Assembly (NCBI GenBank): GCA_964016885.1 | Contig: OZ024746.1 | Span: forward strand, 46,810,001-46,874,000 | Reading direction: 5' to 3' | DNA length: 64,000 bases | DNA from: Eledone cirrhosa | Lineage: Eukaryota | Shown: in pieces, positions 8,199-53,780 of the stretch | Position numbering within the stretch: the first letter of the stretch is position 1 | Layout: each line of letters starts with the position of its first letter | The notes under the pieces: generated by a model | Told to the model about the DNA's origin: nothing | Database searches by the model: none | The model's input: the letters and a program-made list of their open reading frames with translations, nothing else | Position numbers and translations under genes: made by a program

Positions 8199-9977
8199 AT
8201 GGCCGAAGCTTCTTCACCAAAATTCGAAGGAGGAAAGGGGAAGATGAACTTACAGCTTCCCCCTGCCACTGTCACAGTAGCAGAGGTCAAGAAGAAAGGT
8301 CAGCCAGAGGAAGAATTCTCTCCACCTGTTAACCGACAACTTGACGTTGCCATGGCAACAACTCAAAGAACCAGCGGCAACAGCAACAACAACAATGCGA
8401 CGGACGAAAACAACACCAATAACAATAACAACAACAAGACCAATAACGGTGACAACAACAACAATGATAACAACAACACCACCAACGACAACAACAACAC
8501 AAACAAACAAAATTTCTCCTTCGCCGAGACGACAAGGAAAACCCTCGACTATCTGCCAGTAGATATAACAAAAGCGAAGGAGCTACTGGCGGATGCGAAA
8601 AAATATATAGTGTACGGGGAAAATGGTTCATTCACAATCCATTCCCCCCCGGAACTAAAAAGCCAGAGACTCCTAAACACGGTCATGTTTAGGACAATCT
8701 CGAACAAAAGTAAAAAACCAGCTCAACCATCACAGAGCGAGATAGAGCTGGTTTTAAAAGACGTCATGAAGGACATCACCTTCATTCAGAAGGATAGACT
8801 CTACGGGAGTCTATCCATTCTCATGAAGGACAGGGACACAGCAGTGAAACTGTCCATCAAACCAATCACATCCACCGCATACACCTTCTACCCTACGTAC
8901 ATGGGTAGAAGAACACAAAAAATAAAAATCCACACCATCCTGCCGATTATGGACATATGGTGGGTTTTGACAGGTTTTCTGGACCTGGAGGATGACATGC
9001 TGGTGTCCATGGGAAAGGCATCGGGTGACGCGTTCAGTGGAACGAGCCTCGAACTTGTAGTTCAAATGAGGCCCGAAAGGATCGCCCAGATCCCTGAACG
9101 CGTCATACTGGATGATCTAACCTTCATCAACATTACCGTTGAGGGTAGACGGCCCTCGTGTTACCTCTGCGGAACCAGAGGTCACCTGAGGGCTGTCTGT
9201 CCCCAACTTAATAAGAAAACCCCAATCCTGCCTACACCACCAACAGCTGCACAACCAACACAATCACCACAACTACCACTACAAAAACAACCACCACAGC
9301 TCAAACCAAAACAAAACAATGTCCAACCCATCCCCTCCACTCAAAAAACAAAAACAATTTCCAAAACACCCGTACCGCAAACACAACCCGAAAATATACC
9401 CCTCCCCTCCAACGCGGAAGATGACCCTAGTTCGTCGTCAGACGAGGAGGAGCACTTCCACACAATCAAAAGAAAAAAAAGAAAACACACCTCAGACACA
9501 CAAATGAAAAAAAACCCTCCCCAAAACATAACACTGACACCAACACAAAAGAGCTCACAACAGCAAACAAAAAACACCACACAAAAACAAAAACATGCAT
9601 ACACATACATAAATACAAGAAACAAAAAACTGTTAAACATTGTGTACAACAACAATCTAATAAAAACACAAGGGCCTAACTTCACCCAGGCAGGGGATTT
9701 CCCCCACCTCAAAATGATTAAGGCCCCACAGGACACCTATAAAACTTTAAAAAACAATTTTAAAGAGGACGTGGGTCCCCCCTGCGTCGGGCCCATTAAC
9801 CGCGTCCTCCTAAAAAACTATCCCACCCCCTCCCCAAACACCCTCACAACTCCAAGCTCCCCAACCACACAACACACTGATGCCCCCACACTTCCACAAA
9901 CCACCACCCCACCCAACAACCCATCCCCCACCCTAATGGAAATTGTGCAGCCCGATACCCGGGACGCAGAGAGGTAA
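8199..9977 (+). CDS. Tx1-like ORF1 (gag-like, zinc knuckle)
   Basis: 592 aa with a CCHC knuckle CYLCGTRGHLRAVC, an Asn-rich N-terminal tract and a Pro/Thr/Gln-rich tail. Confidence 0.88.
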   Translation: MAEASSPKFEGGKGKMNLQLPPATVTVAEVKKKGQPEEEFSPPVNRQLDVAMATTQRTSGNSNNNNATDENNTNNNNNNKTNNGDNNNNDNNNTTNDNNNTNKQNFSFAETTRKTLDYLPVDITKAKELLADAKKYIVYGENGSFTIHSPPELKSQRLLNTVMFRTISNKSKKPAQPSQSEIELVLKDVMKDITFIQKDRLYGSLSILMKDRDTAVKLSIKPITSTAYTFYPTYMGRRTQKIKIHTILPIMDIWWVLTGFLDLEDDMLVSMGKASGDAFSGTSLELVVQMRPERIAQIPERVILDDLTFINITVEGRRPSCYLCGTRGHLRAVCPQLNKKTPILPTPPTAAQPTQSPQLPLQKQPPQLKPKQNNVQPIPSTQKTKTISKTPVPQTQPENIPLPSNAEDDPSSSSDEEEHFHTIKRKKRKHTSDTQMKKNPPQNITLTPTQKSSQQQTKNTTQKQKHAYTYINTRNKKLLNIVYNNNLIKTQGPNFTQAGDFPHLKMIKAPQDTYKTLKNNFKEDVGPPCVGPINRVLLKNYPTPSPNTLTTPSSPTTQHTDAPTLPQTTTPPNNPSPTLMEIVQPDTRDAER

Positions 9978-10001
9978 GTGCCTTTTCTCTTCACCACCAA
10001 C

Positions 10002-13000
10002 ATGGCTATGCTAAGAGTAGGCTGTTTAAATGCGCGTGGCCTGGGCTCAACTTGGAAGCAAGCAATGCTTCTAAATGACCTCAGGTCACAACGTATAGAT
10101 GTGATGGTTATTTGCGAGGCCCGGATCAGCAACGTGCGACAGCTGGCCCCCACCTTTGATGACTTTGAGATGCACGCATCTCTCTGTCAGCCTGGAGGTG
10201 GGGGTGGAGTTGTCGTTCTGCTGCAAAAACATCTGGGTCTCGCAACACAGATGGTACATTTGGACCCGGAGGGTCGACTAGTGGTTCTGGACCTTGGCAG
10301 TGGTAAAGGCGGAGCGTTTAGGTTGGTAGCCGCCTACGGCCCTTTCGGGTCAATGCGGCCGGACTTCTTCCATCGTCTGGAGACTTTTCTAGGGACGTCC
10401 CGCTCCTTGCTATTAGTGGGGGACTGGAATGGTATCCTAGATGCACGCTGGGACTACGTAGGGGCCTGCCCCGATAGAGAGGGGTGTAATAGCCTCAAAG
10501 GGTTAATCGGTCGATTTGACCTGGCCGATAGATATCGACTAGATTTTCCGACTGCGCCAACCTGGACTTGGGCAAATCGTAGCGGATCATCTAGGTCGTA
10601 CCTAGATAGGTTCTTAGTTAGAATTAAGGATAAGGACTTTTTAAGTTGTCCAAAAATGCGCATTGTTGGCTATTCAGACCACAAATTAGTGACCTGCATG
10701 GTCAACCTTGACAGAACTCATAGACAGGGCCCCGGTTACTGGAAGCTCAACTTGTCCTTGCCGGCAAGTAGAGCCTACAGGAATCGGATTAGTACGTTAG
10801 TTAAGGAACGGTTGACTGGAGCGATCGTCAACAGCAGGTGGTGGGTATCTCTAAAGAGAGAGATTAGAGTAGTCTCGATAGAATTTAGTAAGGTTCTAGC
10901 TGCGGATGGGAATAGGAAGGAAAGGGAGCTAATAGATAGAGTAGAAGAGGCAATTAGAAGCGGCGACGTGGCCAGAGTGCTAGCGTCGAGAACGGCTTTG
11001 AGCCAGTTTTTCGACGCGAAGCACGAAGGCTGCGTTGTCCGAAGTAAAATACGTGCTCTAGGGAACGAGGGGACCAAAGCTGTTAGCTGGGCCCGCGTGA
11101 CAGAGGCCAACAGTGGAACTAAATCCACCATCCGGTCTTTGCGAGACCTGGATGGACGGGCGATTCTTGAGCCTAAGCAGATGTGTGAGGCCTTTCAAAG
11201 GCACTTTGCCCGACTGTTCGGGAGGGGCGGGGAGCCGGTTGGGAACGTGGACTTCGGTCCATACCTCGACGGCCTGCCGCGCCTCTCGGACAGGGAGGCG
11301 AAGTCCTGCGAGGAGCCGATTTCGGCCGCTGAGATAGAGGACGTGCTGAGCCAATGCGGCAAACGCAAATCCCCGGGTCTCGATGGTCTTCCTTACGAAT
11401 TATATCTAGCTATGCCGGACTTGTTCCCCGATCTCCTCGAGGCGGTCTACTGCAACTGGCAACAGAACGGGAGAATTCCCTGTACTGTGACCAAGGGCGT
11501 AGTCACGCTAGTGAGGAAGGACGAGAACAAGGGGGACGAAATAAGTAACTTCAGGCCCATAACACTGCTAAATACAGAGTTACAGATTTTGGCCAAGGTG
11601 CTAGCAAAGAGGTTGGCGCTTGTCGTGGGCAACCTGGTGGGAGATGCGCAGACATGCGCTATCCCGTCCAGGTCCATCCATGACAACCTCCACCTCATGC
11701 GATACATCATAGAGAGGGTTGGGAACGAACCCGGCTTTGGTGGGGCTCTGATCAACTTGGATCAATCTAAGGCGTTCGATAGGGTCGACCATGGTTACCT
11801 GGATGCGGTGCTAGCGGCGGCAGGCTTCGGACCCGTTTTCAGGGGCTGGATCACTGCTATGCACAGCAGCCGCATCTGCTCTAGGGTCAAGGTGAACGGC
11901 TACCTCTCGGAGCCGTTCAAAATCGCGCGGTCCATCCGACAAGGGTGCCCTCTCTCCTCCCTTCTGTATGTATTGACTCTCGAGCCACTACTGCGGAAGT
12001 TGGAGTTGTTGCAGGGCATCCCTTTGGAACCGGGATTGCGGAAAGCGGTGTCGGCCTACGCCGATGACGTGACAGTAATGGTGTCGACGGCCTCCGAAAT
12101 CGAGGCGGTCGGCACCTTACTGGAGGAGTACGAAAAGTTCACAGGGGCTAAGCTGAACCGGGACAAGTCGATCGGTTTGCAACTCGGCACGTGGAGGGGC
12201 AGACCGATGCCCTCCGATGGCGTCGTCGGACGCTGGACGGAAGGACCGGTAAAGCTGCTCGGGGTCTGGTTTGGTCCGGACCTCCAGGTGGAGAAGAACT
12301 GGAACGAAGTGACGGCCAAGGTGTTTGCACTCACCCAGAAGTGGGCCGAGTGCAAACTATCCTTGAAAGGTCGAGCGGAGGTGGCGAACACTTTTATAGC
12401 GTCCGCCATCTACTACCGCTTGACCGTCGTGCCTTGTCCAGCCAAAACGCTCGCCAAAATGGAGCGCGCCCTCTTCCGATTCCTTTGGAAGAGGCGGGCT
12501 CCTTTGGTAAGAAGATCCATCTGCTGCCAACACCCTTCTAACGGAGGGCTGGGGATGCCGTGGTTGACGATGCGCAAACACGCGCTCAGGCTGCGGCATC
12601 TCTACGTATTCCTCACCGGACAACCGGTGTGGGCCCCGTTCGTGAGGCGAGCCTTCCCACGACTCGTCTCGCTGACCGAGCTGCAGTCCTGGGTCAAGCA
12701 GAGACCGAGGAAAATGGGCGACTGGCACATCGAATGTGCTCAGGCGCTCACAGCCCTCTGGCAGGCGGACCCGGCGATCAGTGGAGACTCCACTTCGTCA
12801 TTCTATAGAGGGTTGGTCCGCAGCAAGTGCGACGACGCGCTCGGTGAAACTCTAGGCGTGGAGGAAGATGAACTGGCCAGTCTGTTCGGTAGGACCTTCC
12901 GCCCGGGACCGATGGACAACTTCCAAAAGTCCCTGGCCTGGCAGTGCTACCGAGGAGCTCTACCAGTTCGAGACAAGCTCTACAGACATGGGCGCCCGGG

Positions 13001-13439
13001 CAGGGACCCTGCAAAAAAGATCTGTCCGAGGTGCGTGCGAGACGAAGAAACCGTCGCGCACGCATTCATACACTGCCCGGGCGTCACTGACCTGTGGGGC
13101 TATGTGGAACGACTATTGTCGCGGGTGGGACCAATCCAGTTGACCACCGAGTCCATTGTCATGATCAAACCGCCACCCTCCTTCAAAAACGAAGGAGAGG
13201 CGGTTTTCCTTTGTGTGATAGCTATGGCGAAAGAGGTTGTATGGTGGACAAGGTTGAAAGGGCTGAGGTCAGACACCTTTCTCTCCGGCCAACAACTGAT
13301 TCTTTTTTTCAAATACCACTTTGGAAGAAGAATCAGGATGGAGAGAGAGGTGCTGTACCCCAGCAAGTTTTATGAAAGGTGGGTGAAAGTGGCGAGAATG
13401 GCCCGAGTGAATGGGCCTTCTCTCTATATCAGCCTGTAG
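10002..13439 (+). CDS. Tx1-like ORF2: APE endonuclease, reverse transcriptase and C-terminal zinc finger
   Basis: APE motifs LNARGL, GDWN, SYLDRF, SDH. RT motifs KSPGLDG, FRPITLLN, DQSKAFDRV, RQGCPLS, YADD. C-terminal CPRC..ETVAHAFIHC. The first ATG is at 10002; the frame is open from 9978. Confidence 0.95.
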   Translation: MAMLRVGCLNARGLGSTWKQAMLLNDLRSQRIDVMVICEARISNVRQLAPTFDDFEMHASLCQPGGGGGVVVLLQKHLGLATQMVHLDPEGRLVVLDLGSGKGGAFRLVAAYGPFGSMRPDFFHRLETFLGTSRSLLLVGDWNGILDARWDYVGACPDREGCNSLKGLIGRFDLADRYRLDFPTAPTWTWANRSGSSRSYLDRFLVRIKDKDFLSCPKMRIVGYSDHKLVTCMVNLDRTHRQGPGYWKLNLSLPASRAYRNRISTLVKERLTGAIVNSRWWVSLKREIRVVSIEFSKVLAADGNRKERELIDRVEEAIRSGDVARVLASRTALSQFFDAKHEGCVVRSKIRALGNEGTKAVSWARVTEANSGTKSTIRSLRDLDGRAILEPKQMCEAFQRHFARLFGRGGEPVGNVDFGPYLDGLPRLSDREAKSCEEPISAAEIEDVLSQCGKRKSPGLDGLPYELYLAMPDLFPDLLEAVYCNWQQNGRIPCTVTKGVVTLVRKDENKGDEISNFRPITLLNTELQILAKVLAKRLALVVGNLVGDAQTCAIPSRSIHDNLHLMRYIIERVGNEPGFGGALINLDQSKAFDRVDHGYLDAVLAAAGFGPVFRGWITAMHSSRICSRVKVNGYLSEPFKIARSIRQGCPLSSLLYVLTLEPLLRKLELLQGIPLEPGLRKAVSAYADDVTVMVSTASEIEAVGTLLEEYEKFTGAKLNRDKSIGLQLGTWRGRPMPSDGVVGRWTEGPVKLLGVWFGPDLQVEKNWNEVTAKVFALTQKWAECKLSLKGRAEVANTFIASAIYYRLTVVPCPAKTLAKMERALFRFLWKRRAPLVRRSICCQHPSNGGLGMPWLTMRKHALRLRHLYVFLTGQPVWAPFVRRAFPRLVSLTELQSWVKQRPRKMGDWHIECAQALTALWQADPAISGDSTSSFYRGLVRSKCDDALGETLGVEEDELASLFGRTFRPGPMDNFQKSLAWQCYRGALPVRDKLYRHGRPGRDPAKKICPRCVRDEETVAHAFIHCPGVTDLWGYVERLLSRVGPIQLTTESIVMIKPPPSFKNEGEAVFLCVIAMAKEVVWWTRLKGLRSDTFLSGQQLILFFKYHFGRRIRMEREVLYPSKFYERWVKVARMARVNGPSLYISL

Positions 13440-16391: not shown

Positions 16392-16457
16392 TATTTTATC
16401 TGATGAGGACGTACTGATGAAATAGCTCAGTACCTCTGAAATATATATAATAAAATA
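16392..16457 (+). ncRNA. Minimal type I hammerhead ribozyme in a pLTR-like fragment
   Basis: TATTTTAT-CTGATGA-(GTACTGA..TCAGTAC hairpin)-GAAA-T-ATAT-A-TA-ATAAAATA, with an 8-bp perfect stem I. Confidence 0.8.
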
Positions 16458-16858: not shown

Positions 16859-18385
<1,527 letters not shown>

Positions 18386-18460
18386 GAGGCGATGAATTAG
18401 TTTTGCGAGGTTTTTTATATGAAATCGTGTGTCGAAACAGATATTGTTATATTTGGGGAG

Positions 18461-20295
18461 CTAATATAGCTAGCAACTACAGGATCTCCTACTTCCTCTC
18501 AATGGTTATACGCCCCATAATCAAGATGTCCCCAGATGTATGTGAAAGTACAGAGGACCTCCTCAGCAGAATCAGTGAGTGCAACAAAAACAGGAGCCTA
18601 TCCAACTGCATAATAGGCAGCATGGATGTGGTGTCACTGTACCCATCCATTAACATTGATTTTGCTGTGAAAAGATGTGTGGAGATGATCATTGAGAGTG
18701 AGGTGGAGTTCTGCGACGTCGACACAGACGAACTGGGCCTCCTACTTAGACTTACCTACGACACTGACTACCTAGACAGCCATGACCTTAGATGTTTCTG
18801 CCCTAGTAGACCTATAAGAGGTAGACCCCCCACCATAACCTCAATGGCTAAAAAGACTCCCATAGGAAGGTGGATTGGGTGGACCAAAGCTATACGGACC
18901 CCCCAAAACACTGATCAGGTAAGAAAAATGGTCGCACATGCAATAGGGGCTAGTATCAAAACTACCCTAAAGGTCCACATATTTAAGTTCAATGAGAAAA
19001 TCTACACCCAAAATGAGGGAGCAGCCATCGGCGTCAGCATAGCTGGTGATGTTGCCAACCTTTTCATGGTATGGTGGGAAAGGAGACTTAAAGATCTCCT
19101 TAATGAAAGCTCCATAGACCTCATCATGTACTCTCGTTATGTAGACGATATCAATATAGTTATAAGAACACCCCCACTAGAGAGCACTAACAAGTTTGAT
19201 TTAGAACGTAGCACGATGGAAAGCATCCAGCAGATAGCTAATTCCATACACCAGAGTATAACTGTAACTATAGACTTCCCTTCCAAACACCCTAAGAATA
19301 GACTACCTGTATTAGACACAGAACTCTGGATTAACACTATAGACGAGAGAGCCCAAATTCTCCACTCACACTATGCTAAACCCATGGCCTCCAAATACCT
19401 GATACTCAAAAACTCAGCAATGTCCAGTAGTGCTAAGTTTAATATTCTGATCGCAGATTTGGTACGAGTGATGAAGAATGTGTCCAGCATGTGCGACCCA
19501 ACAGAAATGGAAGGACACATCCAACACTTCATCAACCGCATGCAGTTCTCTGGCTACAACCAAAGAGACAGAGTCAGAGTATACGAAGGAGCCATGGAAA
19601 AGTATAAGACCCTCATAGAACTGGACATGAAAGGAATTTGCCCACTATACAGGAGCAAATCATGGAATAGCTTAGATAGGGCTAGACATAAGATAGGGAA
19701 GGCCACATCATGGTACGACAACCAGAGATATCAGAGTGTCATGTTTGTGGACGCCACCCCTGGAGGGAAAATAGCTAACCAGTGTAGAAAGGCCCTGAGA
19801 AAGACCCACTTAAAAATAAAGGTGGTAGAAAAGCCAGGAACCACCATAAAATCCCTGATCAGCAAAACCTACCCTTTTAAGAAAACCCACTGTACCAATA
19901 GGAAATGTATCATATGTAAGGTGAACCCCCGGATAAACTGTAAAACTAGAAACGTAGTCTATAGCATAAGATGTACAGAGGGTACTTGCAGAAACACGAC
20001 AACAACATACATAGGTGAGACAGCTCGTAGCATAGGTGAAAGGATAGACCAACACTGGGGGGAACTAAAAGGACGAAAAAACGGGTCAGTACTATACGAA
20101 CATGCTAGACAACAACATGACGGTAACATAGACAACATAGAAATTAGAATAATATCTAAACATAGGAATGACCCAGCAGATAGGCAAATCAGAGAGGCCA
20201 GTGAAATAGAAATTAGAAGACCAAAGCTAAACAGAAAGAATGAGTGGAACAACAACAACACCCAAACAAACAACACTGACCTAAGAGAAGTATAA
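18461..20295 (+). CDS. Penelope-like reverse transcriptase and GIY-YIG endonuclease (N-terminally truncated)
   Basis: MDVVSLYPSI, GAAIGVSIAGDVANLFM, RYVDDI, LPVLD, a Cys-rich linker and NVVYSIRC..YIGETARS..ER..QH. The first ~20 codons of the ORF track entry come from the inverted pLTR. Confidence 0.92.
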
Positions 20296-20564
20296 ATAAA
20301 TAAGTAAATTAAATTAAATAAAATAAGATAAATAAATACATACACAAGCACATAAACACACACTAGTCACCCAGCAGACACAACACTATACACACTAGTC
20401 ACACATCACACATAACACTATACACACACGCAAACGCATGCGCAAAGAAGACAAAATAAAATAAGATAAACAAACAAGCAAATAAATAAATAAATATATA
20501 GACAGACTGAACAAAAAAAAATGGCGTAGACATACAACACAACAGGAGGAACAATGAATATAAC

Positions 20565-20605
20565 ACCACTGACGATGTTGCAGATGTGCAACGAAAGATT
20601 TATGT
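20565..20605 (+). ncRNA. Hammerhead motif in the PLE pLTR (weak stem I)
   Basis: CTGACGA-T-GTTGCA-GATG-TGCAAC-GAAA-G-AT-T-TA. It is positionally homologous to the better-paired copy at 25423. Confidence 0.6.
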
Positions 20606-20856
20606 AAATTATGTAAACTATATATATATGTGTTTGTCTATATTGTATCTGTATTATTTTTGACCGCCGGTCAGTCAATGGCAACATTGAGGACCGAGTA
20701 AGTTAGATCGCAGATATATATATATAAAAGACAGCGAGAAGCGAAAACCAACCAAACAGTGAGTGTGTTCTGTTATTAATTCTGGCAATATTACGCAAAT
20801 ATGACCCTCCCCAAATATAACAATATATATATAGATATATATAGATATATATATAT

Positions 20857-21303: not shown

Positions 21304-21408
21304 CAGGAGAACATGATATGAAGGCTAAAAAAACACTTGTTGATAGTGCAGTTTTAAATCAACATATGAAAAGTGGTTTTAGATTGATGTGTGATATTGG
21401 GAAAAAAA

Positions 21409-22395
21409 GCCGGCTATCCAGATAAAATCAAATATAATAAAGAAACAAATTCTAGGAAAACTTACAGTAGAATATTTAATCATAACCATTCCAATAATTT
21501 TAATAAAAGACCTAGATACAAAAACATAATCTGGTATAATGCTCCTTTCTCCATCTCTATTAATAACAATATTCCTAAATTATTTTTTAGTGCCTTAAAT
21601 AAATGCTTCCCTCCCTTACATATCTATAGTAAAATATTTAACAAACACACCATCAAATTTTCGTATTCTACATCCTCCAATATTTCCAACATCATTTCTA
21701 AACACAACAACAAAATATTAAATACTAAATCTCTTCCTTCCAATATTGAATCTCATAATAACAATAATAGTACTCCTGACGTCATTGTAAACCCTAGGCT
21801 AACTTCTGTAAACCCAAATGCAACGTCAAACACAACTTCGCTAAATGTTCATAATCCAACTCTAAATCAAGAAACTATTATTCCTATTATTCCTATCACA
21901 AACAACTTCTCCAATCCAATTCCTTCTATAGATAACACTAGATCACTCATTAATAATCTCTCTAATTGCAACTGCCGCATTAAAAATAAATGTCCTCTCA
22001 ACAACCATTGCCTCGATAAAAACTTAATTTATGAATGTAAAATTATAACTAGCACCAATTCCTTCACCTATTTTGGCTCCACTTCCACCTCTTTTAAAGC
22101 TCGTCTCTATAATCATCATTCATCTTTCAAATACAAACTTAAAAGAACTAACACTGCTCTCTCAGAACTCATATGGTCCTTAAAAGACAAAAACATTAAA
22201 TATAACATCTTTTGGAAAAAGATTTCTTCTGCATCCTCGAACTTGAACAGTTCTCTATCTAAAATCTGTAATCTCTGCCTAAATGAAAAATTTACCATTA
22301 TCTCTAACCTAGAATCCATAATAAATAGACGCTCGGATTTGTTTTCCATCTGCCTGCATAAATTCCATAGAACTTTTCACAAAGTATACAGTTAA
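21409..22395 (+). CDS. C-terminal part of a PLE protein (linker and GIY-YIG endonuclease)
   Basis: IIWYNAPFS, IFNKHTIKFSYS, CNCR..CPL..CL, LIYEC..TYFGST..FKARLYNH, CNLCLNEK. The RT core is missing. Confidence 0.85.
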   Translation, partial: AGYPDKIKYNKETNSRKTYSRIFNHNHSNNFNKRPRYKNIIWYNAPFSISINNNIPKLFFSALNKCFPPLHIYSKIFNKHTIKFSYSTSSNISNIISKHNNKILNTKSLPSNIESHNNNNSTPDVIVNPRLTSVNPNATSNTTSLNVHNPTLNQETIIPIIPITNNFSNPIPSIDNTRSLINNLSNCNCRIKNKCPLNNHCLDKNLIYECKIITSTNSFTYFGSTSTSFKARLYNHHSSFKYKLKRTNTALSELIWSLKDKNIKYNIFWKKISSASSNLNSSLSKICNLCLNEKFTIISNLESIINRRSDLFSICLHKFHRTFHKVYS

Positions 22396-42253: not shown

Positions 42254-42264
42254 CATATATATAT

Positions 42265-43031
42265 ATTAAGATAAGCAGAACAAGTAAAATTCAATCAATT
42301 TTTCAAAATACATTAAAAAATATAATATAAATATTTACCTCTTCTAGTGGCCCTTACTGATCAGTTTCGCTTTGTAAAACCTCATAAATCCGATGGATTT
42401 ATGATGGAAAACCAAAGCTCATCAGAGAAGCATTTTCCCTTCCTAGGGCTAAACGTCCCAGGAACGACAAAATATACAACCTCCTGCCAGCTAATAAAGG
42501 TCTGAAAGGTCAAAAAATTGACCCGTATGTAAACTGGACCGAAGTAAAAGCGAGAAAATCAAAGACTTGCTGTCTGCAATTACTACTAAAAAAATAGCAG
42601 CCAAGTAGAGCAACAGGGTTATTCTCAACGGACGGAGAAAAAGGTAGAAGTTAATATGTCCAGGGATACTAAGTACCCCTAGAAATACATAGGTTGTCTA
42701 TGATTCAAGGTTGTTCAATGGTGTTAATTTGATACACCAGAACTTTAATATTAAGATAAGCAGAACAAGTAAAATTCAATCAATTTTTCAAAATACATTA
42801 AAAAAACATTAAAAAATATAATATAAATATTTACCTCTTCTAGTGACCCTAGGTAAATATTTATATTATATTTTTTAATGTATTTTGAAAAATTGATTGA
42901 ATTTTACTTGTTCTGCTTATCTTAATATTAAAGTTCTGGTGTATCAAATTAACACCATTGAACAACCTTGAATCATAGACAACCTATGTATTTCTAGGGG
43001 TACCTAGTATCCCTGGACATATTAACTTCTA
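42265..43031 (-). mobile_element. Short non-coding PLE-like unit: partial tandem (485-bp period) plus inverted segment
   Basis: 42265-42350 is repeated at about 42750-42848. About 42645-42836 is inverted at 42852-43031, with internal deletions. Contains a hammerhead and is flanked by (TA)n. Confidence 0.8.
42351..42429 (-). ncRNA. Type I hammerhead ribozyme with long stem II
   Basis: Minus strand: TTCT-CTGATGA-GCTTTG...TCATAAATCC-ATC-GGATTTATGA...CAAAGC-GAA-ACTGATCAGT-A-AGGG. Confidence 0.82.
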
Positions 43032-43076
43032 CATATATATATATATATATGAATATATATGTATATATAGATATAT

Positions 43077-43166
<90 letters not shown>

Positions 43167-43167
<1 letters not shown>

Positions 43168-43640
43168 TTGTAATATAATGAAACGAAATTTCATTTCTCA
43201 CTCTTAGTACGGCACTTACTTAAATGTAAGTATGTATGTATACGTACATACATATATGTATACGTACATACATATATATACATACAGGTACACATATATA
43301 TATGTACGTATCAGTTTAGCAAACGTTTATTATAACGCCCGCTTTGTCCGTTTGTAAACAAGCGAACAGCCTGATTTATGCCATACGGTGTTAAGGCAAC
43401 ACGTCACCTTTTTGTTCAACACTGACACAGGAACGATGTACTAGTTTCAAGCTTGTTAGCTATCATCAGCACCGTATACCCTTCTGCCAGATAGTTGAAC
43501 GTTCGAAAGTATATACTTTCCTTATGAAAATAACGGCTGAGCAGCCTAATTTGCATATCGAGTGAGTTCAGTCCGCCAGGCGTACCGAAAACGATAAGTT
43601 GTAATATAATGAAACGAAATTTCATTTCTCACTCTTAGTA
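43167..43640 (-). mobile_element. Short non-coding unit with ~42-bp direct terminal repeat and a hammerhead
   Basis: gttgtaatataatgaaacgaaatttcatttctcactcttagta occurs at 43167 and 43598. Confidence 0.7.
43433..43475 (-). ncRNA. Minimal type I hammerhead ribozyme
   Basis: Minus strand: ACGGTG-CTGATGA-TAGC-TAACAA-GCTT-GAAAC-TA-GTA-CATCGT. Stem I is 6 bp and stem III is the palindrome ACTAGT. Confidence 0.85.
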
Positions 43641-43727
43641 TTGAGTACCTTACTTACTGTGGTTACCTCCGATTCAACTCGGAATAACGTATATATATAC
43701 ATACATACTATATATATATATATATAC

Positions 43728-46606
43728 AAATTGGGATAAATGCTCTGAAATAGCGATATATATGTGAATATAGACATAGAATATTCGAAAATATTCTGTA
43801 TGTTTATAATAAACATTTTGAAGACCTAATCGCTATAGAATAGAATACGTCACGTATTACAATTAGATTCTCGATAAAAGCAAGGGAAGTAATCTACGCG
43901 TTTCATTCTCGTTAGAAATCATCAGGACTACATATCCAGTGCTTTTATCGAGAATGACACAGCTAGAGACTTATAGAATACTTAGCTGTGTACAGGAACT
44001 GGTTTGAAAGAGCGGTTGCCGGTCCGGCAGAAATTAGAAATTGGGATAAATGCTCTGAAATAGCGATATATATGTGAATATAGACATAGAATATTCGAAA
44101 ATATTCTGTATGTTTATAATAAACATTTTGAAGACCTAATCGCTATAGAATAGAATACGTCACGTATTACAATTAGATTCTCGATAAAAGCAAGGGAAGT
44201 AATCTACGCGTTTCATTCTCGTTAGAAATCATCAGGACTACATATCCAGTGCTTTTATCGAGAATGACACAGCTAGAGACTTATAGAATACTTAGCTGTG
44301 TACAGGAACTGGTTTGAAAGAGCGGTTGCCGGTCCGGCAGAAATTAGAAATTGGGATAAATGCTCTGAAATAGCGATATATATGTGAATATAGACATAGA
44401 ATATTCGAAAATATTCTGTATGTTTATAATAAACATTTTGAAGACCTAATCGCTATAGAATAGAATACGTCACGTATTACAATTAGATTCTCGATAAAAG
44501 CAAGGGAAGTAATCTACGCGTTTCATTCTCGTTAGAAATCATCAGGACTACATATCCAGTGCTTTTATCGAGAATGACACAGCTAGAGACTTATAGAATA
44601 CTTAGCTGTGTACAGGAACTGGTTTGAAAGAGCGGTTGCCGGTCCGGCAGAAATTAGAAATTGGGATAAATGCTCTGAAATAGCGATATATATGTGAATA
44701 TAGACATAGAATATTCGAAAATATTCTGTATGTTTATAATAAACATTTTGAAGACCTAATCGCTATAGAATAGAATACGTCACGTATTACAATTAGATTC
44801 TCGATAAAAGCAAGGGAAGTAATCTACGCGTTTCATTCTCGTTAGAAATCATCAGGACTACATATCCAGTGCTTTTATCGAGAATGACACAGCTAGAGAC
44901 TTATAGAATACTTAGCTGTGTACAGGAACTGGTTTGAAAGAGCGGTTGCCGGTCCGGCAGAAATTAGAAATTGGGATAAATGCTCTGAAATAGCGATATA
45001 TATGTGAATATAGACATAGAATATTCGAAAATATTCTGTATGTTTATAATAAACATTTTGAAGACCTAATCGCTATAGAATAGAATACGTCACGTATTAC
45101 AATTAGATTCTCGATAAAAGCAAGGGAAGTAATCTACGCGTTTCATTCTCGTTAGAAATCATCAGGACTACATATCCAGTGCTTTTATCGAGAATGACAC
45201 AGCTAGAGACTTATAGAATACTTAGCTGTGTACAGGAACTGGTTTGAAAGAGCGGTTGCCGGTCCGGCAGAAATTAGAAATTGGGATAAATGCTCTGAAA
45301 TAGCGATATATATGTGAATATAGACATAGAATATTCGAAAATATTCTGTATGTTTATAATAAACATTTTGAAGACCTAATCGCTATAGAATAGAATACGT
45401 CACGTATTACAATTAGATTCTCGATAAAAGCAAGGGAAGTAATCTACGCGTTTCATTCTCGTTAGAAATCATCAGGACTACATATCCAGTGCTTTTATCG
45501 AGAATGACACAGCTAGAGACTTATAGAATACTTAGCTGTGTACAGGAACTGGTTTGAAAGAGCGGTTGCCGGTCCGGCAGAAATTAGAAATTGGGATAAA
45601 TGCTCTGAAATAGCGATATATATGTGAATATAGACATAGAATATTCGAAAATATTCTGTATGTTTATAATAAACATTTTGAAGACCTAATCGCTATAGAA
45701 TAGAATACGTCACGTATTACAATTAGATTCTCGATAAAAGCAAGGGAAGTAATCTACGCGTTTCATTCTCGTTAGAAATCATCAGGACTACATATCCAGT
45801 GCTTTTATCGAGAATGACACAGCTAGAGACTTATAGAATACTTAGCTGTGTACAGGAACTGGTTTGAAAGAGCGGTTGCCGGTCCGGCAGAAATTAGAAA
45901 TTGGGATAAATGCTCTGAAATAGCGATATATATGTGAATATAGACATAGAATATTCGAAAATATTCTGTATGTTTATAATAAACATTTTGAAGACCTAAT
46001 CGCTATAGAATAGAATACGTCACGTATTACAATTAGATTCTCGATAAAAGCAAGGGAAGTAATCTACGCGTTTCATTCTCGTTAGAAATCATCAGGACTA
46101 CATATCCAGTGCTTTTATCGAGAATGACACAGCTAGAGACTTATAGAATACTTAGCTGTGTACAGGAACTGGTTTGAAAGAGCGGTTGCCGGTCCGGCAG
46201 AAATTAGAAATTGGGATAAATGCTCTGAAATAGCAATATATATGTGAATATAGACATAGAATATTCGAAAATATTCTGTATGTTTATAATAAACATTTTG
46301 AAGACCTAATCGCTATAGAATAGAATACGTCACGTATTACAATTAGATTCTCGATAAAAGCAAGGGAAGTAATCTACGCGTTTCATTCTCGTTAGAAATC
46401 ATCAGGACTACATATCCAGTGCTTTTATCGAGAATGACACAGCTAGAGACTTATAGAATACTTAGCTGTGTACAGGAACTGGTTTGAAAGAGCGGTTGCC
46501 GGTCCGGCAGAAATTAGAAATTGGGATAAATGCTCTGAAATAGCGATATATATGTGAATATAGACATAGAATATTCGAAAATATTCTGTATGTTTATAAT
46601 AAACAT
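43728..46606 (-). mobile_element. 310-bp hammerhead tandem array, left block (9.3 units, 9 ribozymes on the minus strand)
   Basis: ttgggataaa recurs at 43731+310k (k=0-9). The first ribozyme is at 43889-43931. Confidence 0.93.
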
Positions 46607-49600
46607 AAGTATTCTATAAGTCTCTAGCTGTGTCATTCTCGATAAAAGCACTGGATATGTAGTCCTGATGATTTCTAACGAGAATGAAACGCGTAGATTA
46701 CTTCCCTTGCTTTTATCGAGAATCTAATTGTAATACGTGACGTATTCTATTCTATAGCGATTAGGTCTTCAAAATGTTTATTATAAACATACAGAATATT
46801 TTCGAATATTCTATGTCTATATTCACATATATATCGCTATTTCAGAGCATTTATCCCAATTTCTAATTTCTGCCGGACCGGCAACCGCTCTTTCAAACCA
46901 GTTCCTGTACACAGCTAAGTATTCTATAAGTCTCTAGCTGTGTCATTCTCGATAAAAGCACTGGATATGTAGTCCTGATGATTGCTAACGAGAATGAAAC
47001 GCGTAGATTACTTCCCTTGCTTTTATCGAGAATCTAATTGTAATACGTGACGTATTCTATTCTATAGCGATTAGGTCTTCAAAATGTTTATTATAAACAT
47101 ACAGAATATTTTCGAATATTCTATGTCTATATTCACATATATATCGCTATTTCAGAGCATTTATCCCAATTTCTAATTTCTGCCGGACCGGCAACCGCTC
47201 TTTCAAACCAGTTCCTGTACACAGCTAAGTATTCTATAAGTCTCTAGCTGTGTCATTCTCGATAAAAGCACTGGATATGTAGTCCTGATGATTTCTAACG
47301 AGAATGAAACGCGTAGATTACTTCCCTTGCTTTTATCGAGAATCTAATTGTAATACGTGACGTATTCTATTCTATAGCGATTAGGTCTTCAAAATGTTTA
47401 TTATAAACATACAGAATATTTTCGAATATTCTATGTCTATATTCACATATATATCGCTATTTCAGAGCATTTATCCCAATTTCTAATTTCTGCCGGACCG
47501 GCAACCGCTCTTTCAAACCAGTTCCTGTACACAGCTAAGTATTCTATAAGTCTCTAGCTGTGTCATTCTCGATAAAAGCACTGGATATGTAGTCCTGATG
47601 ATTTCTAACGAGAATGAAACGCGTAGATTACTTCCCTTGCTTTTATCGAGAATCTAATTGTAATACGTGACGTATTCTATTCTATAGCGATTAGGTCTTC
47701 AAAATGTTTATTATAAACATACAGAATATTTTCGAATATTCTATGTCTATATTCACATATATATCGCTATTTCAGAGCATTTATCCCAATTTCTAATTTC
47801 TGCCGGACCGGCAACCGCTCTTTCAAACCAGTTCCTGTACACAGCTAAGTATTCTATAAGTCTCTAGCTGTGTCATTCTCGATAAAAGCACTGGATATGT
47901 AGTCCTGATGATTTCTAACGAGAATGAAACGCGTAGATTACTTCCCTTGCTTTTATCGAGAATCTAATTGTAATACGTGACGTATTCTATTCTATAGCGA
48001 TTAGGTCTTCAAAATGTTTATTATAAACATACAGAATATTTTCGAATATTCTATGTCTATATTCACATATATATCGCTATTTCAGAGCATTTATCCCAAT
48101 TTCTAATTTCTGCCGGACCGGCAACCGCTCTTTCAAACCAGTTCCTGTACACAGCTAAGTATTCTATAAGTCTCTAGCTGTGTCATTCTCGATAAAAGCA
48201 CTGGATATGTAGTCCTGATGATTTCTAACGAGAATGAAACGCGTAGATTACTTCCCTTGCTTTTATCGAGAATCTAATTGTAATACGTGACGTATTCTAT
48301 TCTATAGCGATTAGGTCTTCAAAATGTTTATTATAAACATACAGAATATTTTCGAATATTCTATGTCTATATTCACATATATATCGCTATTTCAGAGCAT
48401 TTATCCCAATTTCTAATTTCTGCCGGACCGGCAACCGCTCTTTCAAACCAGTTCCTGTACACAGCTAAGTATTCTATAAGTCTCTAGCTGTGTCATTCTC
48501 GATAAAAGCACTGGATATGTAGTCCTGATGATTGCTAACGAGAATGAAACGCGTAGATTACTTCCCTTGCTTTTATCGAGAATCTAATTGTAATACGTGA
48601 CGTATTCTATTCTATAGCGATTAGGTCTTCAAAATGTTTATTATAAACATACAGAATATTTTCGAATATTCTATGTCTATATTCACATATATATCGCTAT
48701 TTCAGAGCATTTATCCCAATTTCTAATTTCTGCCGGACCGGCAACCGCTCTTTCAAACCAGTTCCTGTACACAGCTAAGTATTCTATAAGTCTCTAGCTG
48801 TGTCATTCTCGATAAAAGCACTGGATATGTAGTCCTGATGATTTCTAACGAGAATGAAACGCGTAGATTACTTCCCTTGCTTTTATCGAGAATCTAATTG
48901 TAATACGTGACGTATTCTATTCTATAGCGATTAGGTCTTCAAAATGTTTATTATAAACATACAGAATATTTTCGAATATTCTATGTCTATATTCACATAT
49001 ATATCGCTATTTCAGAGCATTTATCCCAATTTCTAATTTCTGCCGGACCGGCAACCGCTCTTTCAAACCAGTTCCTGTACACAGCTAAGTATTCTATAAG
49101 TCTCTAGCTGTGTCATTCTCGATAAAAGCACTGGATATGTAGTCCTGATGATTTCTAACGAGAATGAAACGCGTAGATTACTTCCCTTGCTTTTATCGAG
49201 AATCTAATTGTAATACGTGACGTATTCTATTCTATAGCGATTAGGTCTTCAAAATGTTTATTATAAACATACAGAATATTTTCGAATATTCTATGTCTAT
49301 ATTCACATATATATCGCTATTTCAGAGCATTTATCCCAATTTCTAATTTCTGCCGGACCGGCAACCGCTCTTTCAAACCAGTTCCTGTACACAGCTAAGT
49401 ATTCTATAAGTCTCTAGCTGTGTCATTCTCGATAAAAGCACTGGATATGTAGTCCTGATGATTTCTAACGAGAATGAAACGCGTAGATTACTTCCCTTGC
49501 TTTTATCGAGAATCTAATTGTAATACGTGACGTATTCTATTCTATAGCGATTAGGTCTTCAAAATGTTTATTATAAACATACAGAATATTTTCGAATATT

Positions 49601-52600
49601 CTATGTCTATATTCACATATATATCGCTATTTCAGAGCATTTATCCCAATTTCTAATTTCTGCCGGACCGGCAACCGCTCTTTCAAACCAGTTCCTGTAC
49701 ACAGCTAAGTATTCTATAAGTCTCTAGCTGTGTCATTCTCGATAAAAGCACTGGATATGTAGTCCTGATGATTTCTAACGAGAATGAAACGCGTAGATTA
49801 CTTCCCTTGCTTTTATCGAGAATCTAATTGTAATACGTGACGTATTCTATTCTATAGCGATTAGGTCTTCAAAATGTTTATTATAAACATACAGAATATT
49901 TTCGAATATTCTATGTCTATATTCACATATATATCGCTATTTCAGAGCATTTATCCCAATTTCTAATTTCTGCCGGACCGGCAACCGCTCTTTCAAACCA
50001 GTTCCTGTACACAGCTAAGTATTCTATAAGTCTCTAGCTGTGTCATTCTCGATAAAAGCACTGGATATGTAGTCCTGATGATTTCTAACGAGAATGAAAC
50101 GCGTAGATTACTTCCCTTGCTTTTATCGAGAATCTAATTGTAATACGTGACGTATTCTATTCTATAGCGATTAGGTCTTCAAAATGTTTATTATAAACAT
50201 ACAGAATATTTTCGAATATTCTATGTCTATATTCACATATATATCGCTATTTCAGAGCATTTATCCCAATTTCTAATTTCTGCCGGACCGGCAACCGCTC
50301 TTTCAAACCAGTTCCTGTACACAGCTAAGTATTCTATAAGTCTCTAGCTGTGTCATTCTCGATAAAAGCACTGGATATGTAGTCCTGATGATTTCTAACG
50401 AGAATGAAACGCGTAGATTACTTCCCTTGCTTTTATCGAGAATCTAATTGTAATACGTGACGTATTCTATTCTATAGCGATTAGGTCTTCAAAATGTTTA
50501 TTATAAACATACAGAATATTTTCGAATATTCTATGTCTATATTCACATATATATCGCTATTTCAGAGCATTTATCCCAATTTCTAATTTCTGCCGGACCG
50601 GCAACCGCTCTTTCAAACCAGTTCCTGTACACAGCTAAGTATTCTATAAGTCTCTAGCTGTTTCATTCTCGATAAAAGCACTGGATATGTAGTCCTGATG
50701 ATTTCTAACGAGAATGAAACGCGTAGATTACTTCCCTTGCTTTTATCGAGAATCTAATTGTAATACGTGACGTATTCTATTCTATAGCGATTAGGTCTTC
50801 AAAATGTTTATTATAAACATACAGAATATTTTCGAATATTCTATGTCTATATTCACATATATATCGCTATTTCAGAGCATTTATCCCAATTTCTAATTTC
50901 TGCCGGACCGGCAACCGCTCTTTCAAACCAGTTCCTGTACACAGCTAAGTATTCTATAAGTCTCTAGCTGTGTCATTCTCGATAAAAGCACTGGATATGT
51001 AGTCCTGATGATTTCTAACGAGAATGAAACGCGTAGATTACTTCCCTTGCTTTTATCGAGAATCTAATTGTAATACGTGACGTATTCTATTCTATAGCGA
51101 TTAGGTCTTCAAAATGTTTATTATAAACATACAGAATATTTTCGAATATTCTATGTCTATATTCACATATATATCGCTATTTCAGAGCATTTATCCCAAT
51201 TTCTAATTTCTGCCGGACCGGCAACCGCTCTTTCAAACCAGTTCCTGTACACAGCTAAGTATTCTATAAGTCTCTAGCTGTGTCATTCTCGATAAAAGCA
51301 CTGGATATGTAGTCCTGATGATTTCTAACGAGAATGAAACGCGTAGATTACTTCCCTTGCTTTTATCGAGAATCTAATTGTAATACGTGACGTATTCTAT
51401 TCTATAGCGATTAGGTCTTCAAAATGTTTATTATAAACATACAGAATATTTTCGAATATTCTATGTCTATATTCACATATATATCGCTATTTCAGAGCAT
51501 TTATCCCAATTTCTAATTTCTGCCGGACCGGCAACCGCTCTTTCAAACCAGTTCCTGTACACAGCTAAGTATTCTATAAGTCTCTAGCTGTGTCATTCTC
51601 GATAAAAGCACTGGATATGTAGTCCTGATGATTTCTAACGAGAATGAAACGCGTAGATTACTTCCCTTGCTTTTATCGAGAATCTAATTGTAATACGTGA
51701 CGTATTCTATTCTATAGCGATTAGGTCTTCAAAATGTTTATTATAAACATACAGAATATTTTCGAATATTCTATGTCTATATTCACATATATATCGCTAT
51801 TTCAGAGCATTTATCCCAATTTCTAATTTCTGCCGGACCGGCAACCGCTCTTTCAAACCAGTTCCTGTACACAGCTAAGTATTCTATAAGTCTCTAGCTG
51901 TGTCATTCTCGATAAAAGCACTGGATATGTAGTCCTGATGATTTCTAACGAGAATGAAACGCGTAGATTACTTCCCTTGCTTTTATCGAGAATCTAATTG
52001 TAATACGTGACGTATTCTATTCTATAGCGATTAGGTCTTCAAAATGTTTATTATAAACATACAGAATATTTTCGAATATTCTATGTCTATATTCACATAT
52101 ATATCGCTATTTCAGAGCATTTATCCCAATTTCTAATTTCTGCCGGACCGGCAACCGCTCTTTCAAACCAGTTCCTGTACACAGCTAAGTATTCTATAAG
52201 TCTCTAGCTGTGTCATTCTCGATAAAAGCACTGGATATGTAGTCCTGATGATTGCTAACGAGAATGAAACGCGTAGATTACTTCCCTTGCTTTTATCGAG
52301 AATCTAATTGTAATACGTGACGTATTCTATTCTATAGCGATTAGGTCTTCAAAATGTTTATTATAAACATACAGAATATTTTCGAATATTCTATGTCTAT
52401 ATTCACATATATATCGCTATTTCAGAGCATTTATCCCAATTTCTAATTTCTGCCGGACCGGCAACCGCTCTTTCAAACCAGTTCCTGTACACAGCTAAGT
52501 ATTCTATAAGTCTCTAGCTGTGTCATTCTCGATAAAAGCACTGGATATGTAGTCCTGATGATTTCTAACGAGAATGAAACGCGTAGATTACTTCCCTTGC

Positions 52601-53645
52601 TTTTATCGAGAATCTAATTGTAATACGTGACGTATTCTATTCTATAGCGATTAGGTCTTCAAAATGTTTATTATAAACATACAGAATATTTTCGAATATT
52701 CTATGTCTATATTCACATATATATCGCTATTTCAGAGCATTTATCCCAATTTCTAATTTCTGCCGGACCGGCAACCGCTCTTTCAAACCAGTTCCTGTAC
52801 ACAGCTAAGTATTCTATAAGTCTCTAGCTGTGTCATTCTCGATAAAAGCACTGGATATGTAGTCCTGATGATTTCTAACGAGAATGAAACGCGTAGATTA
52901 CTTCCCTTGCTTTTATCGAGAATCTAATTGTAATACGTGACGTATTCTATTCTATAGCGATTAGGTCTTCAAAATGTTTATTATAAACATACAGAATATT
53001 TTCGAATATTCTATGTCTATATTCACATATATATCGCTATTTCAGAGCATTTATCCCAATTTCTAATTTCTGCCGGACCGGCAACCGCTCTTTCAAACCA
53101 GTTCCTGTACACAGCTAAGTATTCTATAAGTCTCTAGCTGTGTCATTCTCGATAAAAGCACTGGATATGTAGTCCTGATGATTTCTAACGAGAATGAAAC
53201 GCGTAGATTACTTCCCTTGCTTTTATCGAGAATCTAATTGTAATACGTGACGTATTCTATTCTATAGCGATTAGGTCTTCAAAATGTTTATTATAAACAT
53301 ACAGAATATTTTCGAATATTCTATGTCTATATTCACATATATATCGCTATTTCAGAGCATTTATCCCAATTTCTAATTTCTGCCGGACCGGCAACCGCTC
53401 TTTCAAACCAGTTCCTGTACACAGCTAAGTATTCTATAAGTCTCTAGCTGTGTCATTCTCGATAAAAGCACTGGATATGTAGTCCTGATGATTTCTAACG
53501 AGAATGAAACGCGTAGATTACTTCCCTTGCTTTTATCGAGAATCTAATTGTAATACGTGACGTATTCTATTCTATAGCGATTAGGTCTTCAAAATGTTTA
53601 TTATAAACATACAGAATATTTTCGAATATTCTATGTCTATATTCA
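46606..53645 (+). mobile_element. 310-bp hammerhead tandem array, right block (22.7 units, 23 ribozymes on the plus strand)
   Basis: attctataag recurs at 46611+310k (k=0-22). The unit is the reverse complement of the left-block unit. Confidence 0.93.
46659..46701 (+). ncRNA. Minimal type I hammerhead ribozyme (representative of 32 copies)
   Basis: GTAGTC-CTGATGA-TTTCT-AACG-AGAAT-GAAAC-GC-GTA-GATTAC, with predicted cleavage after 46695. Stem I is extended by ATTCTCGATAAAAGCA/TGCTTTTATCGAGAAT. Confidence 0.9.
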
Positions 53646-53649
53646 TATA

Positions 53650-53780
53650 TATATACGTTATTCCGAGTTGAATCGGAGGTAACCACAGTATGTAAGGTAC
53701 TCAATACATTGCAGAGTATAAAAGTTTTAATATAGATGAGATTCTACAGTACTAGAACTGTTTCATTCTTTAGAAATCAT
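53650..53780 (-). mobile_element. pLTR-like fragment with 5'-truncated hammerhead
   Basis: Minus strand ATGA-TTTCT-AA-AGAAT-GAAAC-AGT..ACT-GTA-GAATCTC plus tail. Same family as 31037-31190 and 43638-43695. Confidence 0.75.

Follow-up and report, generated by a model that had tools for sequence, protein, structure and literature searches.

The 64-kb window analysed here (positions 46810001-46874000 of contig C6 in the 3.0-Gb genome of Eledone cirrhosa) contains a repeat, named family A in this paper, that forms two adjoining tandem arrays at 43728-46606 and 46606-53662, both with a 310-bp period, 99% matches (Tandem Repeats Finder) and a GC content of about 0.35. A motif search found 23 hammerhead ribozyme motifs on the plus strand (46659 to 53479) and nine on the minus strand (43919 to 46399), and the total of 32 agrees with an earlier note made from the letters of this DNA alone. 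That note had taken the whole for a single head-to-tail concatemer, and in this it was mistaken: both the period and the strand break at 46606, where two inverted arms are joined 5'-to-5', with 9.3 units on the minus strand to the left and 22.7 units on the plus strand to the right. Neither this inversion nor the one-ended tail described below had been recognised. The period with little divergence that it had reported does hold within the arms, the 22 complete plus units being 0-1 base apart from one another, but is interrupted at the junction. With unit position 1 set at 46606, the outer end of the left arm falls at unit position 257 and that of the right arm at about 220, and a (TA)n tract borders each of them. 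As had also been claimed, no open reading frame (ORF) of at least 150 aa lies within the array; it carries no reverse transcriptase (RT) or GIY-YIG ORF, and the element is non-autonomous. No tRNA gene was found in the window.

A 310-bp unit with a non-canonical hammerhead

On every sequence-level feature tested, family A is a new family of a known class, the non-LTR (long terminal repeat) retrozymes. Like the animal members of this class, it consists of tandem units of about 300 bp with low GC, each with a type I hammerhead and no ORF, dispersed as dimers to large multimers, and like them it co-occurs with Penelope-like elements (PLEs) and is compatible with the circular intermediate proposed for the class (PMC7229834; 10.64898/2026.07.22.740005). 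No cephalopod retrozyme, and no PLE tail at a retrozyme end, was found in the literature searched, the supplements of which may hold some; the word 'ribozyme' is absent from the main text of the Octopus vulgaris repeat annotation (PMC13282606).

The family A motif has the elements of a type I core, i.e. CUGANGA, GAAA, UH and stems I-III, with the fold open at stem I, and the GTA that precedes the predicted cut ends at 46695, just where it had been placed. The core and the three stems of a complete hammerhead are thus present as previously described, but the label 'minimal' does not fit a molecule with a 6-bp stem I, a 4-bp stem II with a U.U and a 2-bp stem III. The latter lies within the palindrome ACGCGU, which is self-complementary and is predicted to form a duplex of -7.5 kcal/mol and no hairpin. 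Folding is predicted to exceed chance for the ribozyme region (z=-5.7) and for the linear monomer (z=-4.4), and the circular monomer is predicted to be highly self-paired (minimum free energy z=-4.7 against 60 shuffles). The check by Rfam that the earlier note had called for came out negative: there was no hammerhead at the gathering score in the whole window, and at E<=10 the segment 46600-47300 gave no hammerhead and three weak unrelated matches. A scan of metagenomes with the ribozyme pattern returned 0 matches. On the other hand, two further families in the flanks of the array, B and C (see below), have the core unchanged and stems that are paired but of different sequence, which supports the hammerhead as a real motif. 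The base of stem II is U.U in family A, with A-U in one haplotype, and is likewise U.U in families B and C. The palindrome fits the type of hammerhead described as active in the form of a dimer (PMC4209133), and dimer dependence is predicted here too. In its very short helix III and palindromic loop the family A ribozyme resembles the satellite hammerheads of newt and axolotl, which cleave as dimers (PMC4209133; PMC7229834); it differs from them in that stem II has U.U at its base where theirs has G-C, and in that its dimer dependence is a prediction.

Selection was examined in 52 insertions with 484 units, two indel-rich unplaced contigs being left out; single 250C units in the 13 loci studied first, an effect of how the query was selected, were excluded from the spectrum test. 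Of 24 inherited variants, none falls in the 14 core positions and nine fall in tolerant ribozyme positions. Variants in stems keep or create a pair in 6/6 inherited and 2/12 sporadic cases (p=0.0015), and inherited variants are enriched in the ribozyme (8/20 versus 6/54 sporadic, p=0.016). Inherited variants thus spare the catalytic core and keep stem pairing, which points to selection on family A at the RNA level and lends indirect support to the predicted self-cleavage. Sense-strand A>G changes are also in excess among inherited variants (7/20 versus 4/54 sporadic, p=0.007). RNA editing is high in cephalopods, and it is conceivable, though unlikely, that A-to-I editing of the putative circle was written back into the genome; since the excess is confounded with selection for G.U wobble, editing stays a lead only.

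Ends, arms and haplotypes of the insertions

Family A is dispersed throughout the genome in arrays of variable length, as the earlier note had anticipated, with 17,098 unit matches and 18,158 intact ribozyme cores (exact patterns; controls 0). The long end described below was found 1,015 times in exact form (control 0), which gives at least 1,015 insertions, and the short-end pattern 1,751 times, some ends being counted two or three times. An older tandem relative of the unit, with 68-78% identity and a different but complete hammerhead, was also observed (L033:1277-1691; L131:6437-6916; L148:3418-3522).

To describe the insertions we used 40 stretches on contig C1, of which 16 are the first consecutive listed loci with unit matches and 24 were drawn from lists of end patterns and are biased to paired ends. 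Two arms are present in 13 of the 16 consecutive loci, in each case with a short end on one arm and a long end on the other; the remaining three are single-armed, one of them abutting an assembly gap. All 40 stretches together gave 38 two-arm insertions, 37 with a short and a long end and one cut by the fetch, while two stretches represent one duplicated locus (L138, where one two-arm insertion is present twice across an assembly gap, a local false duplication). In the 13 stretches studied first, chosen by identity to the unit of the window and including the window itself, eight have a short and a long end, one has an atypical left arm and four show a single orientation. Short ends lie at unit positions 218-229 and long ends mostly at exactly 255, so that one end carries a tail of 33-37 nt, which is present in 13/13 of the unselected two-arm loci. 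The unit has an internal (AT)4 at the site of the short end, which can pair with the target, and the target at insertions is (TA)n or AT-rich, as is typical of PLEs.

In most of the other loci the two arms share 0-6 nt at the central junction. Which of the arms is the longer varies (13 versus 24 cases), and an origin of the second arm by fold-back was rejected for this reason. Arm lengths follow an exponential distribution with a mean of 1.26 kb (n=77, Kolmogorov-Smirnov p=0.86) over a range of 0.2-27 units. The 76 5' ends are spread uniformly round the unit (chi-square p=0.46), none of them within 5 nt of the ribozyme cut site where 2.7 were expected, which indicates that linear cleaved monomers do not set the stopping point. 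Two side observations concern the joints within insertions. In one insertion (L115:718-5451) the central junction is doubled, with two additional short inverted pieces, which suggests that the template was switched repeatedly when the arms were joined. In addition, several insertions (L115, L124, L145, L151, L149) have one base inserted at unit position 92, 2 nt after the predicted cut and ligation site, fixed through whole insertions with a 311-bp period; this could be a scar of ligation, or of reverse transcription, on the circle.

Private substitutions and indels are fixed throughout both arms of an insertion. Among arm pairs with at least 15 shared variable sites (four pairs were dropped as too short), 33 of 34 carry the same haplotype in both arms, with 18 haplotypes in all, as compared with a mean of 4.6 and a maximum of 12 in 10,000 shuffles. 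This points to one unit-length molecule, most simply a circle, that two primers read repeatedly.

Routes of insertion

The two-arm build and the PLE tail on one end in (TA)n tie family A to PLE enzymes. PLEs have been reported to possess an inverted 5'-truncated copy, a one-ended tail of 30-40 bp and a bias to (TA)n (Craig et al. 2021, 10.1101/2021.04.23.441226), and the Poseidon PLE studied in vitro uses two internal RT start sites and extends both target strands, the tail being the distance between the sites, a feature given as unique to PLEs; by prediction, its protein forms a dimer (Frangieh et al. 2024, PMC11167929). Family A has the same inverted 5'-truncated copy, one-ended tail and AT-rich or (TA)n target, apparently two internal RT start sites, and a hammerhead in its repeat. 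It differs from PLEs, Poseidon PAc included, in lacking an RT or GIY-YIG ORF, in forming many-unit concatemers of a 310-nt unit and in the location of its putative priming sites, which lie 130-165 nt downstream of the ribozyme cut. The non-autonomous PLEs of the Chlamys type, MRC1 for example, are described as having no hammerheads and as sharing 3' similarity with autonomous partners, and family A differs on both counts (Craig et al. 2021). Unlike retrozymes as described in PMC7229834 and 10.64898/2026.07.22.740005, it shows the inverted two-arm build, the one-ended tail, the (TA)n target and one haplotype per insertion, and the word 'inverted' is absent from the available text of PMC7229834. 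Of the Xenopus retrozyme families, 24 of 57 match the pseudo-LTR of an autonomous PLE. The family A unit was compared with one PLE, PLE1, and gave no significant match to it.

PLE1 is present in the window as a 5'-truncated copy with the same types of short and long end and the same (TA)n flanks as family A. About 80 of the 135 copies scored are 100% identical in protein, with ORFs up to 1,218 aa; copies so nearly identical and with full ORFs point to an active, very young PLE in this genome. PLE1 has a single short-end site, and its long ends lie 45 or 60 nt beyond it. At C28:42003900-42066300 (L107-L110) there is an inverted concatemer of PLE1 of about 62 kb, with 4,146-bp units, intact ORFs of about 1,210 aa and about 99.9% identity, bracketed by a short end at about 42.004 Mb and a long end at about 42.066 Mb, its middle being deduced from match spacing and phase, which agree within 20 nt. 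The best named relative of the window PLE protein is from Octopus vulgaris (69%), and Pfam gave no family on full PLE1 and a weak RVT_1 on the window fragment. PLE1 as the parent of the 310-bp unit was rejected, there being no significant similarity, and no chimeric arm naming a partner was seen in the eight single-arm or atypical loci examined. PLE1 is a candidate helper, and it shows what PLE enzymes do in the E. cirrhosa genome.

We consider it probable that family A is a non-LTR retrozyme copied by PLE enzymes, through two-primer rolling-circle target-primed reverse transcription of one monomer circle; the earlier view of a very young, PLE-linked retrozyme is supported by the genome-wide matches, the end pattern and the haplotypes. 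Under this proposal, transcripts of the arrays would be cut into 310-nt monomers by their tandem hammerheads, which would probably act as dimers formed through the ACGCGU palindrome, and a host ligase would circularise the monomers. A PLE protein with GIY-YIG and RT domains would then cut both strands of a (TA)n tract, in keeping with the end pattern seen, and the two DNA ends would serve as primers at two internal sites of one and the same RNA, with 33-37 nt between the sites. Both cDNAs would run round one monomer, presumably a circle given the single-template pattern seen, for a random distance with a mean of about four turns, and the two 5'-truncated products would be joined head to head by repair, with the 0-6 nt overlap seen at the junction. 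The longest arms, that of the window included, may afterwards have been reshuffled or extended by unequal exchange. It is also conceivable, at somewhat less than even chances, that each insertion records the simultaneous reading of one RNA circle by both active sites of a PLE dimer, primed one from each side of a double-strand cut at points 35 nt apart and each displacing the other's cDNA round the circle, and that PLE1 has behaved likewise, with arms up to about 55 kb. In runs X3 and X4 the unit appears as one 340-nt closed contig; tandem DNA would give the same, and the run type is not on record.

Several observations weigh against this proposal. The family A ribozyme lacks the usual G10.1-C11.1 pair, which is highly conserved in hammerheads (PMC4209133), and is missed by Rfam; of nine dimers in the Xenopus study, a single one cleaved (10.64898/2026.07.22.740005); and the one PLE that has been reconstituted in vitro did without hammerhead cleavage and used mainly unprocessed RNA as its substrate (PMC11167929). 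The avoidance of the core is a weak test by itself (p=0.03 when confined to the ribozyme, p=0.33 for the unit as a whole). PLE1 has a tail of 45 or 60 nt, not of 33-37 nt, and has no significant sequence in common with the unit. No RNA run containing the unit was listed in a search of sequencing runs, a result that says nothing on expression. In one of 37 insertions (L144), the last unit of both arms carries 294T and the unit next to it 294C, as expected from a multimer template or from conversion between arms. Finally, 69T>G occurs in 3/23 plus units of the window and in no other sampled locus, L135 repeats two variants seven units apart, and L133 shows a recombinant-like unit; such recurrent variants in the longest arms point to copying or exchange at the DNA level, and the long arms, including that of the window, were probably reshuffled in this way later. 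Rolling-circle copying of a 310-nt monomer, as the earlier note had it, is accordingly retained as the best inference from indirect evidence and qualified by these signs of later exchange in the longest arms and by the RNA-run search.

The same PLE enzymes could instead have used an uncleaved linear multimer transcript of an existing array, with the ribozyme mattering only occasionally or later. This is the scenario of the in vitro work on Poseidon (PMC11167929); a homogeneous parent would likewise give one haplotype to both arms, and the in-register, unit-specific variant in both arms of L144 and the weak look of the ribozyme speak for it. However, daughters could then only be shorter than their parents and a new variant would be confined to one unit, so that 18 haplotypes, each fixed through whole insertions, need a frequent one-unit bottleneck; moreover, the inherited variants respect the ribozyme fold. 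We regard this route as unlikely. Less likely again is that PLEs insert only one or two units per arm and that the long arrays grow later in the manner of a DNA satellite, through slippage or unequal exchange. Tandem amplification that starts locally at a PLE terminus has been discussed (10.64898/2026.07.22.740005), and the repeated sporadic variants in the longest arms speak for this route; yet the arm lengths, from 0.2 to 27 units, fall on a single smooth exponential, most loci are multi-unit in both arms, the 88 sporadic substitutions in 484 units allow little time, and the 4.1-kb autonomous unit of PLE1 shows the same build.

Other machinery, i.e. twin priming by long interspersed nuclear elements (LINEs) or the reinsertion of DNA rolling-circle products (Helitron or extrachromosomal circle), is very improbable. 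Twin priming also yields 5' inversions, and LINEs with long ORFs are present in the window; nevertheless, DNA routes leave the selection on RNA pairing unexplained, there is no poly(A) end, and both ends are fixed, internal and different by a constant tail, which is unique to PLEs according to PMC11167929. That the structures are artefacts of assembly or library (fold-back chimeras or collapsed repeats) is scarcely credible: long reads can produce inverted repeats and L138 is duplicated across a gap, but at dozens of loci the arms are asymmetric, their two fixed ends differ and the haplotype is specific to the locus, and short-read contigs of run X1, which may be the source sample, contain the unit, its head-to-tail joint and the short end running into (AT)n.

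Neighbouring elements and wider meaning

The features of the locus are listed in Table 1. Pieces of family B flank the array; the inverted match of 52-62 bp in the flanks was rejected as a part of the family A array and is the tail of this separate family. Elsewhere, family B has a hammerhead with a 4-bp stem III, about 500 bp of unique sequence with a long TA/TG tract upstream, inverted builds and a tail of about 65 nt (L041-L076); no ORF was found in it, and it has 26/28 nt of the ribozyme core region in common with family A. It was rejected as an autonomous partner, no common ORF being found upstream in six copies, and so was the derivation of the 310-bp unit from an inverted family B insertion (the similarity covers 29 nt at 76% with an E of about 0.4 and is not significant). 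Family C has a unit of about 430-545 bp with an internal microsatellite and a palindromic ACUAGU stem III, and 3,283 candidates (L163-L187); its copy in the window meets a family B tail 5'-to-5', the two sharing 3 nt, and the pair may have arisen by insertion from two templates.

Table 1. Coordinates of the family A array and of the related elements in the window
Feature	Position	Strand	Remarks
Family A, left arm	43728..46606	-	9.3 units, 9 hammerheads; 3' long end at unit 257 with tail; 5' truncated at unit 169
Family A, right arm	46606..53645	+	22.7 units, 23 hammerheads; 5' end at unit 1; 3' short end at unit ~220 into (TA)n
5'-to-5' inversion junction of the arms	46606		1-nt overlap
Left (TA)n target tract	43690..43727
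Right (TA)n target tract	53646..53655
First plus-strand type I hammerhead	46659..46701	+	predicted cut after 46695
Stem I of this hammerhead	46659-46664/46696-46701	+	6 bp
Core of this hammerhead	46665-46671; 46686-46690; 46693-46695	+	CUGAUGA; GAAAC; GUA
Stem II of this hammerhead	46673-46676/46681-46684	+	4 bp, U.U at base
Outer stem	46635..46723	+	16 bp, perfect, extends stem I; unit 30-45 pairs with 103-118
First plus unit, positions 218-255	46823..46860	+	two putative RT start sites (AU-rich short end, CCAAT long end), 33-37-nt tail between
PLE1, 5'-truncated autonomous PLE	18387..20826		RT + GIY-YIG ORF 18355-20295; 74-bp inverted arm 18387-18460
Family B, truncated 3' end	53656..53780	-	flank, outside the array; 1,001 first-look candidates
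Family B, 52-bp 3' tail piece	43638..43689	+	flank
Family C, retrozyme-like	43163..43640	-	1.1 units; own hammerhead, CUGAUGA at 43469

More hammerhead-like motifs, belonging to other families of PLE type, lie at 16400(+), 21297(-), 25428(+) and 20569(+, read by eye), several of them in (TA)n and none found by Rfam. The window also contains part of a second PLE-like ORF, a 3' fragment whose cysteine linker is different (21388-22395; relatives in L035, L036, L073 and L155), a two-ORF LINE at 8199-13439 with open frames of 592 aa and 1,153 aa (endonuclease, RT and zinc-finger domains), and a 162-bp inverted repeat at 42644-43032, 99% complementary, with a 65-nt spacer and an overlapping 58-bp direct copy at 42263, which may be another two-arm insertion or a miniature inverted-repeat transposable element (MITE).

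In the papers cited here, the help of PLEs and the use of circular templates by retrozymes are deduced from shared ribozymes, co-occurrence and the phylogeny of terminal repeats, and the mechanism is left open, including which enzyme mobilises animal retrozymes and whether circles are the template (PMC7229834; 10.64898/2026.07.22.740005; PMC7761336). Family A gives evidence on both questions at the level of single insertions, namely a PLE-specific end signature and one haplotype per insertion, and thereby bears on a mechanism proposed earlier but not shown, in which a PLE enzyme copies one RNA round and round. The same genome holds an intact PLE of very recent origin, with a protein that would lend itself to purification for the published assay, and about 18,000 ribozyme copies missed by Rfam (roughly 5-6 Mb), which amount to a natural mutational scan of a non-canonical hammerhead. 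If both active sites of a PLE dimer do read one circle simultaneously, two-primer rolling-circle retrotransposition would be a general mode, readable in E. cirrhosa from more than 1,000 natural events.

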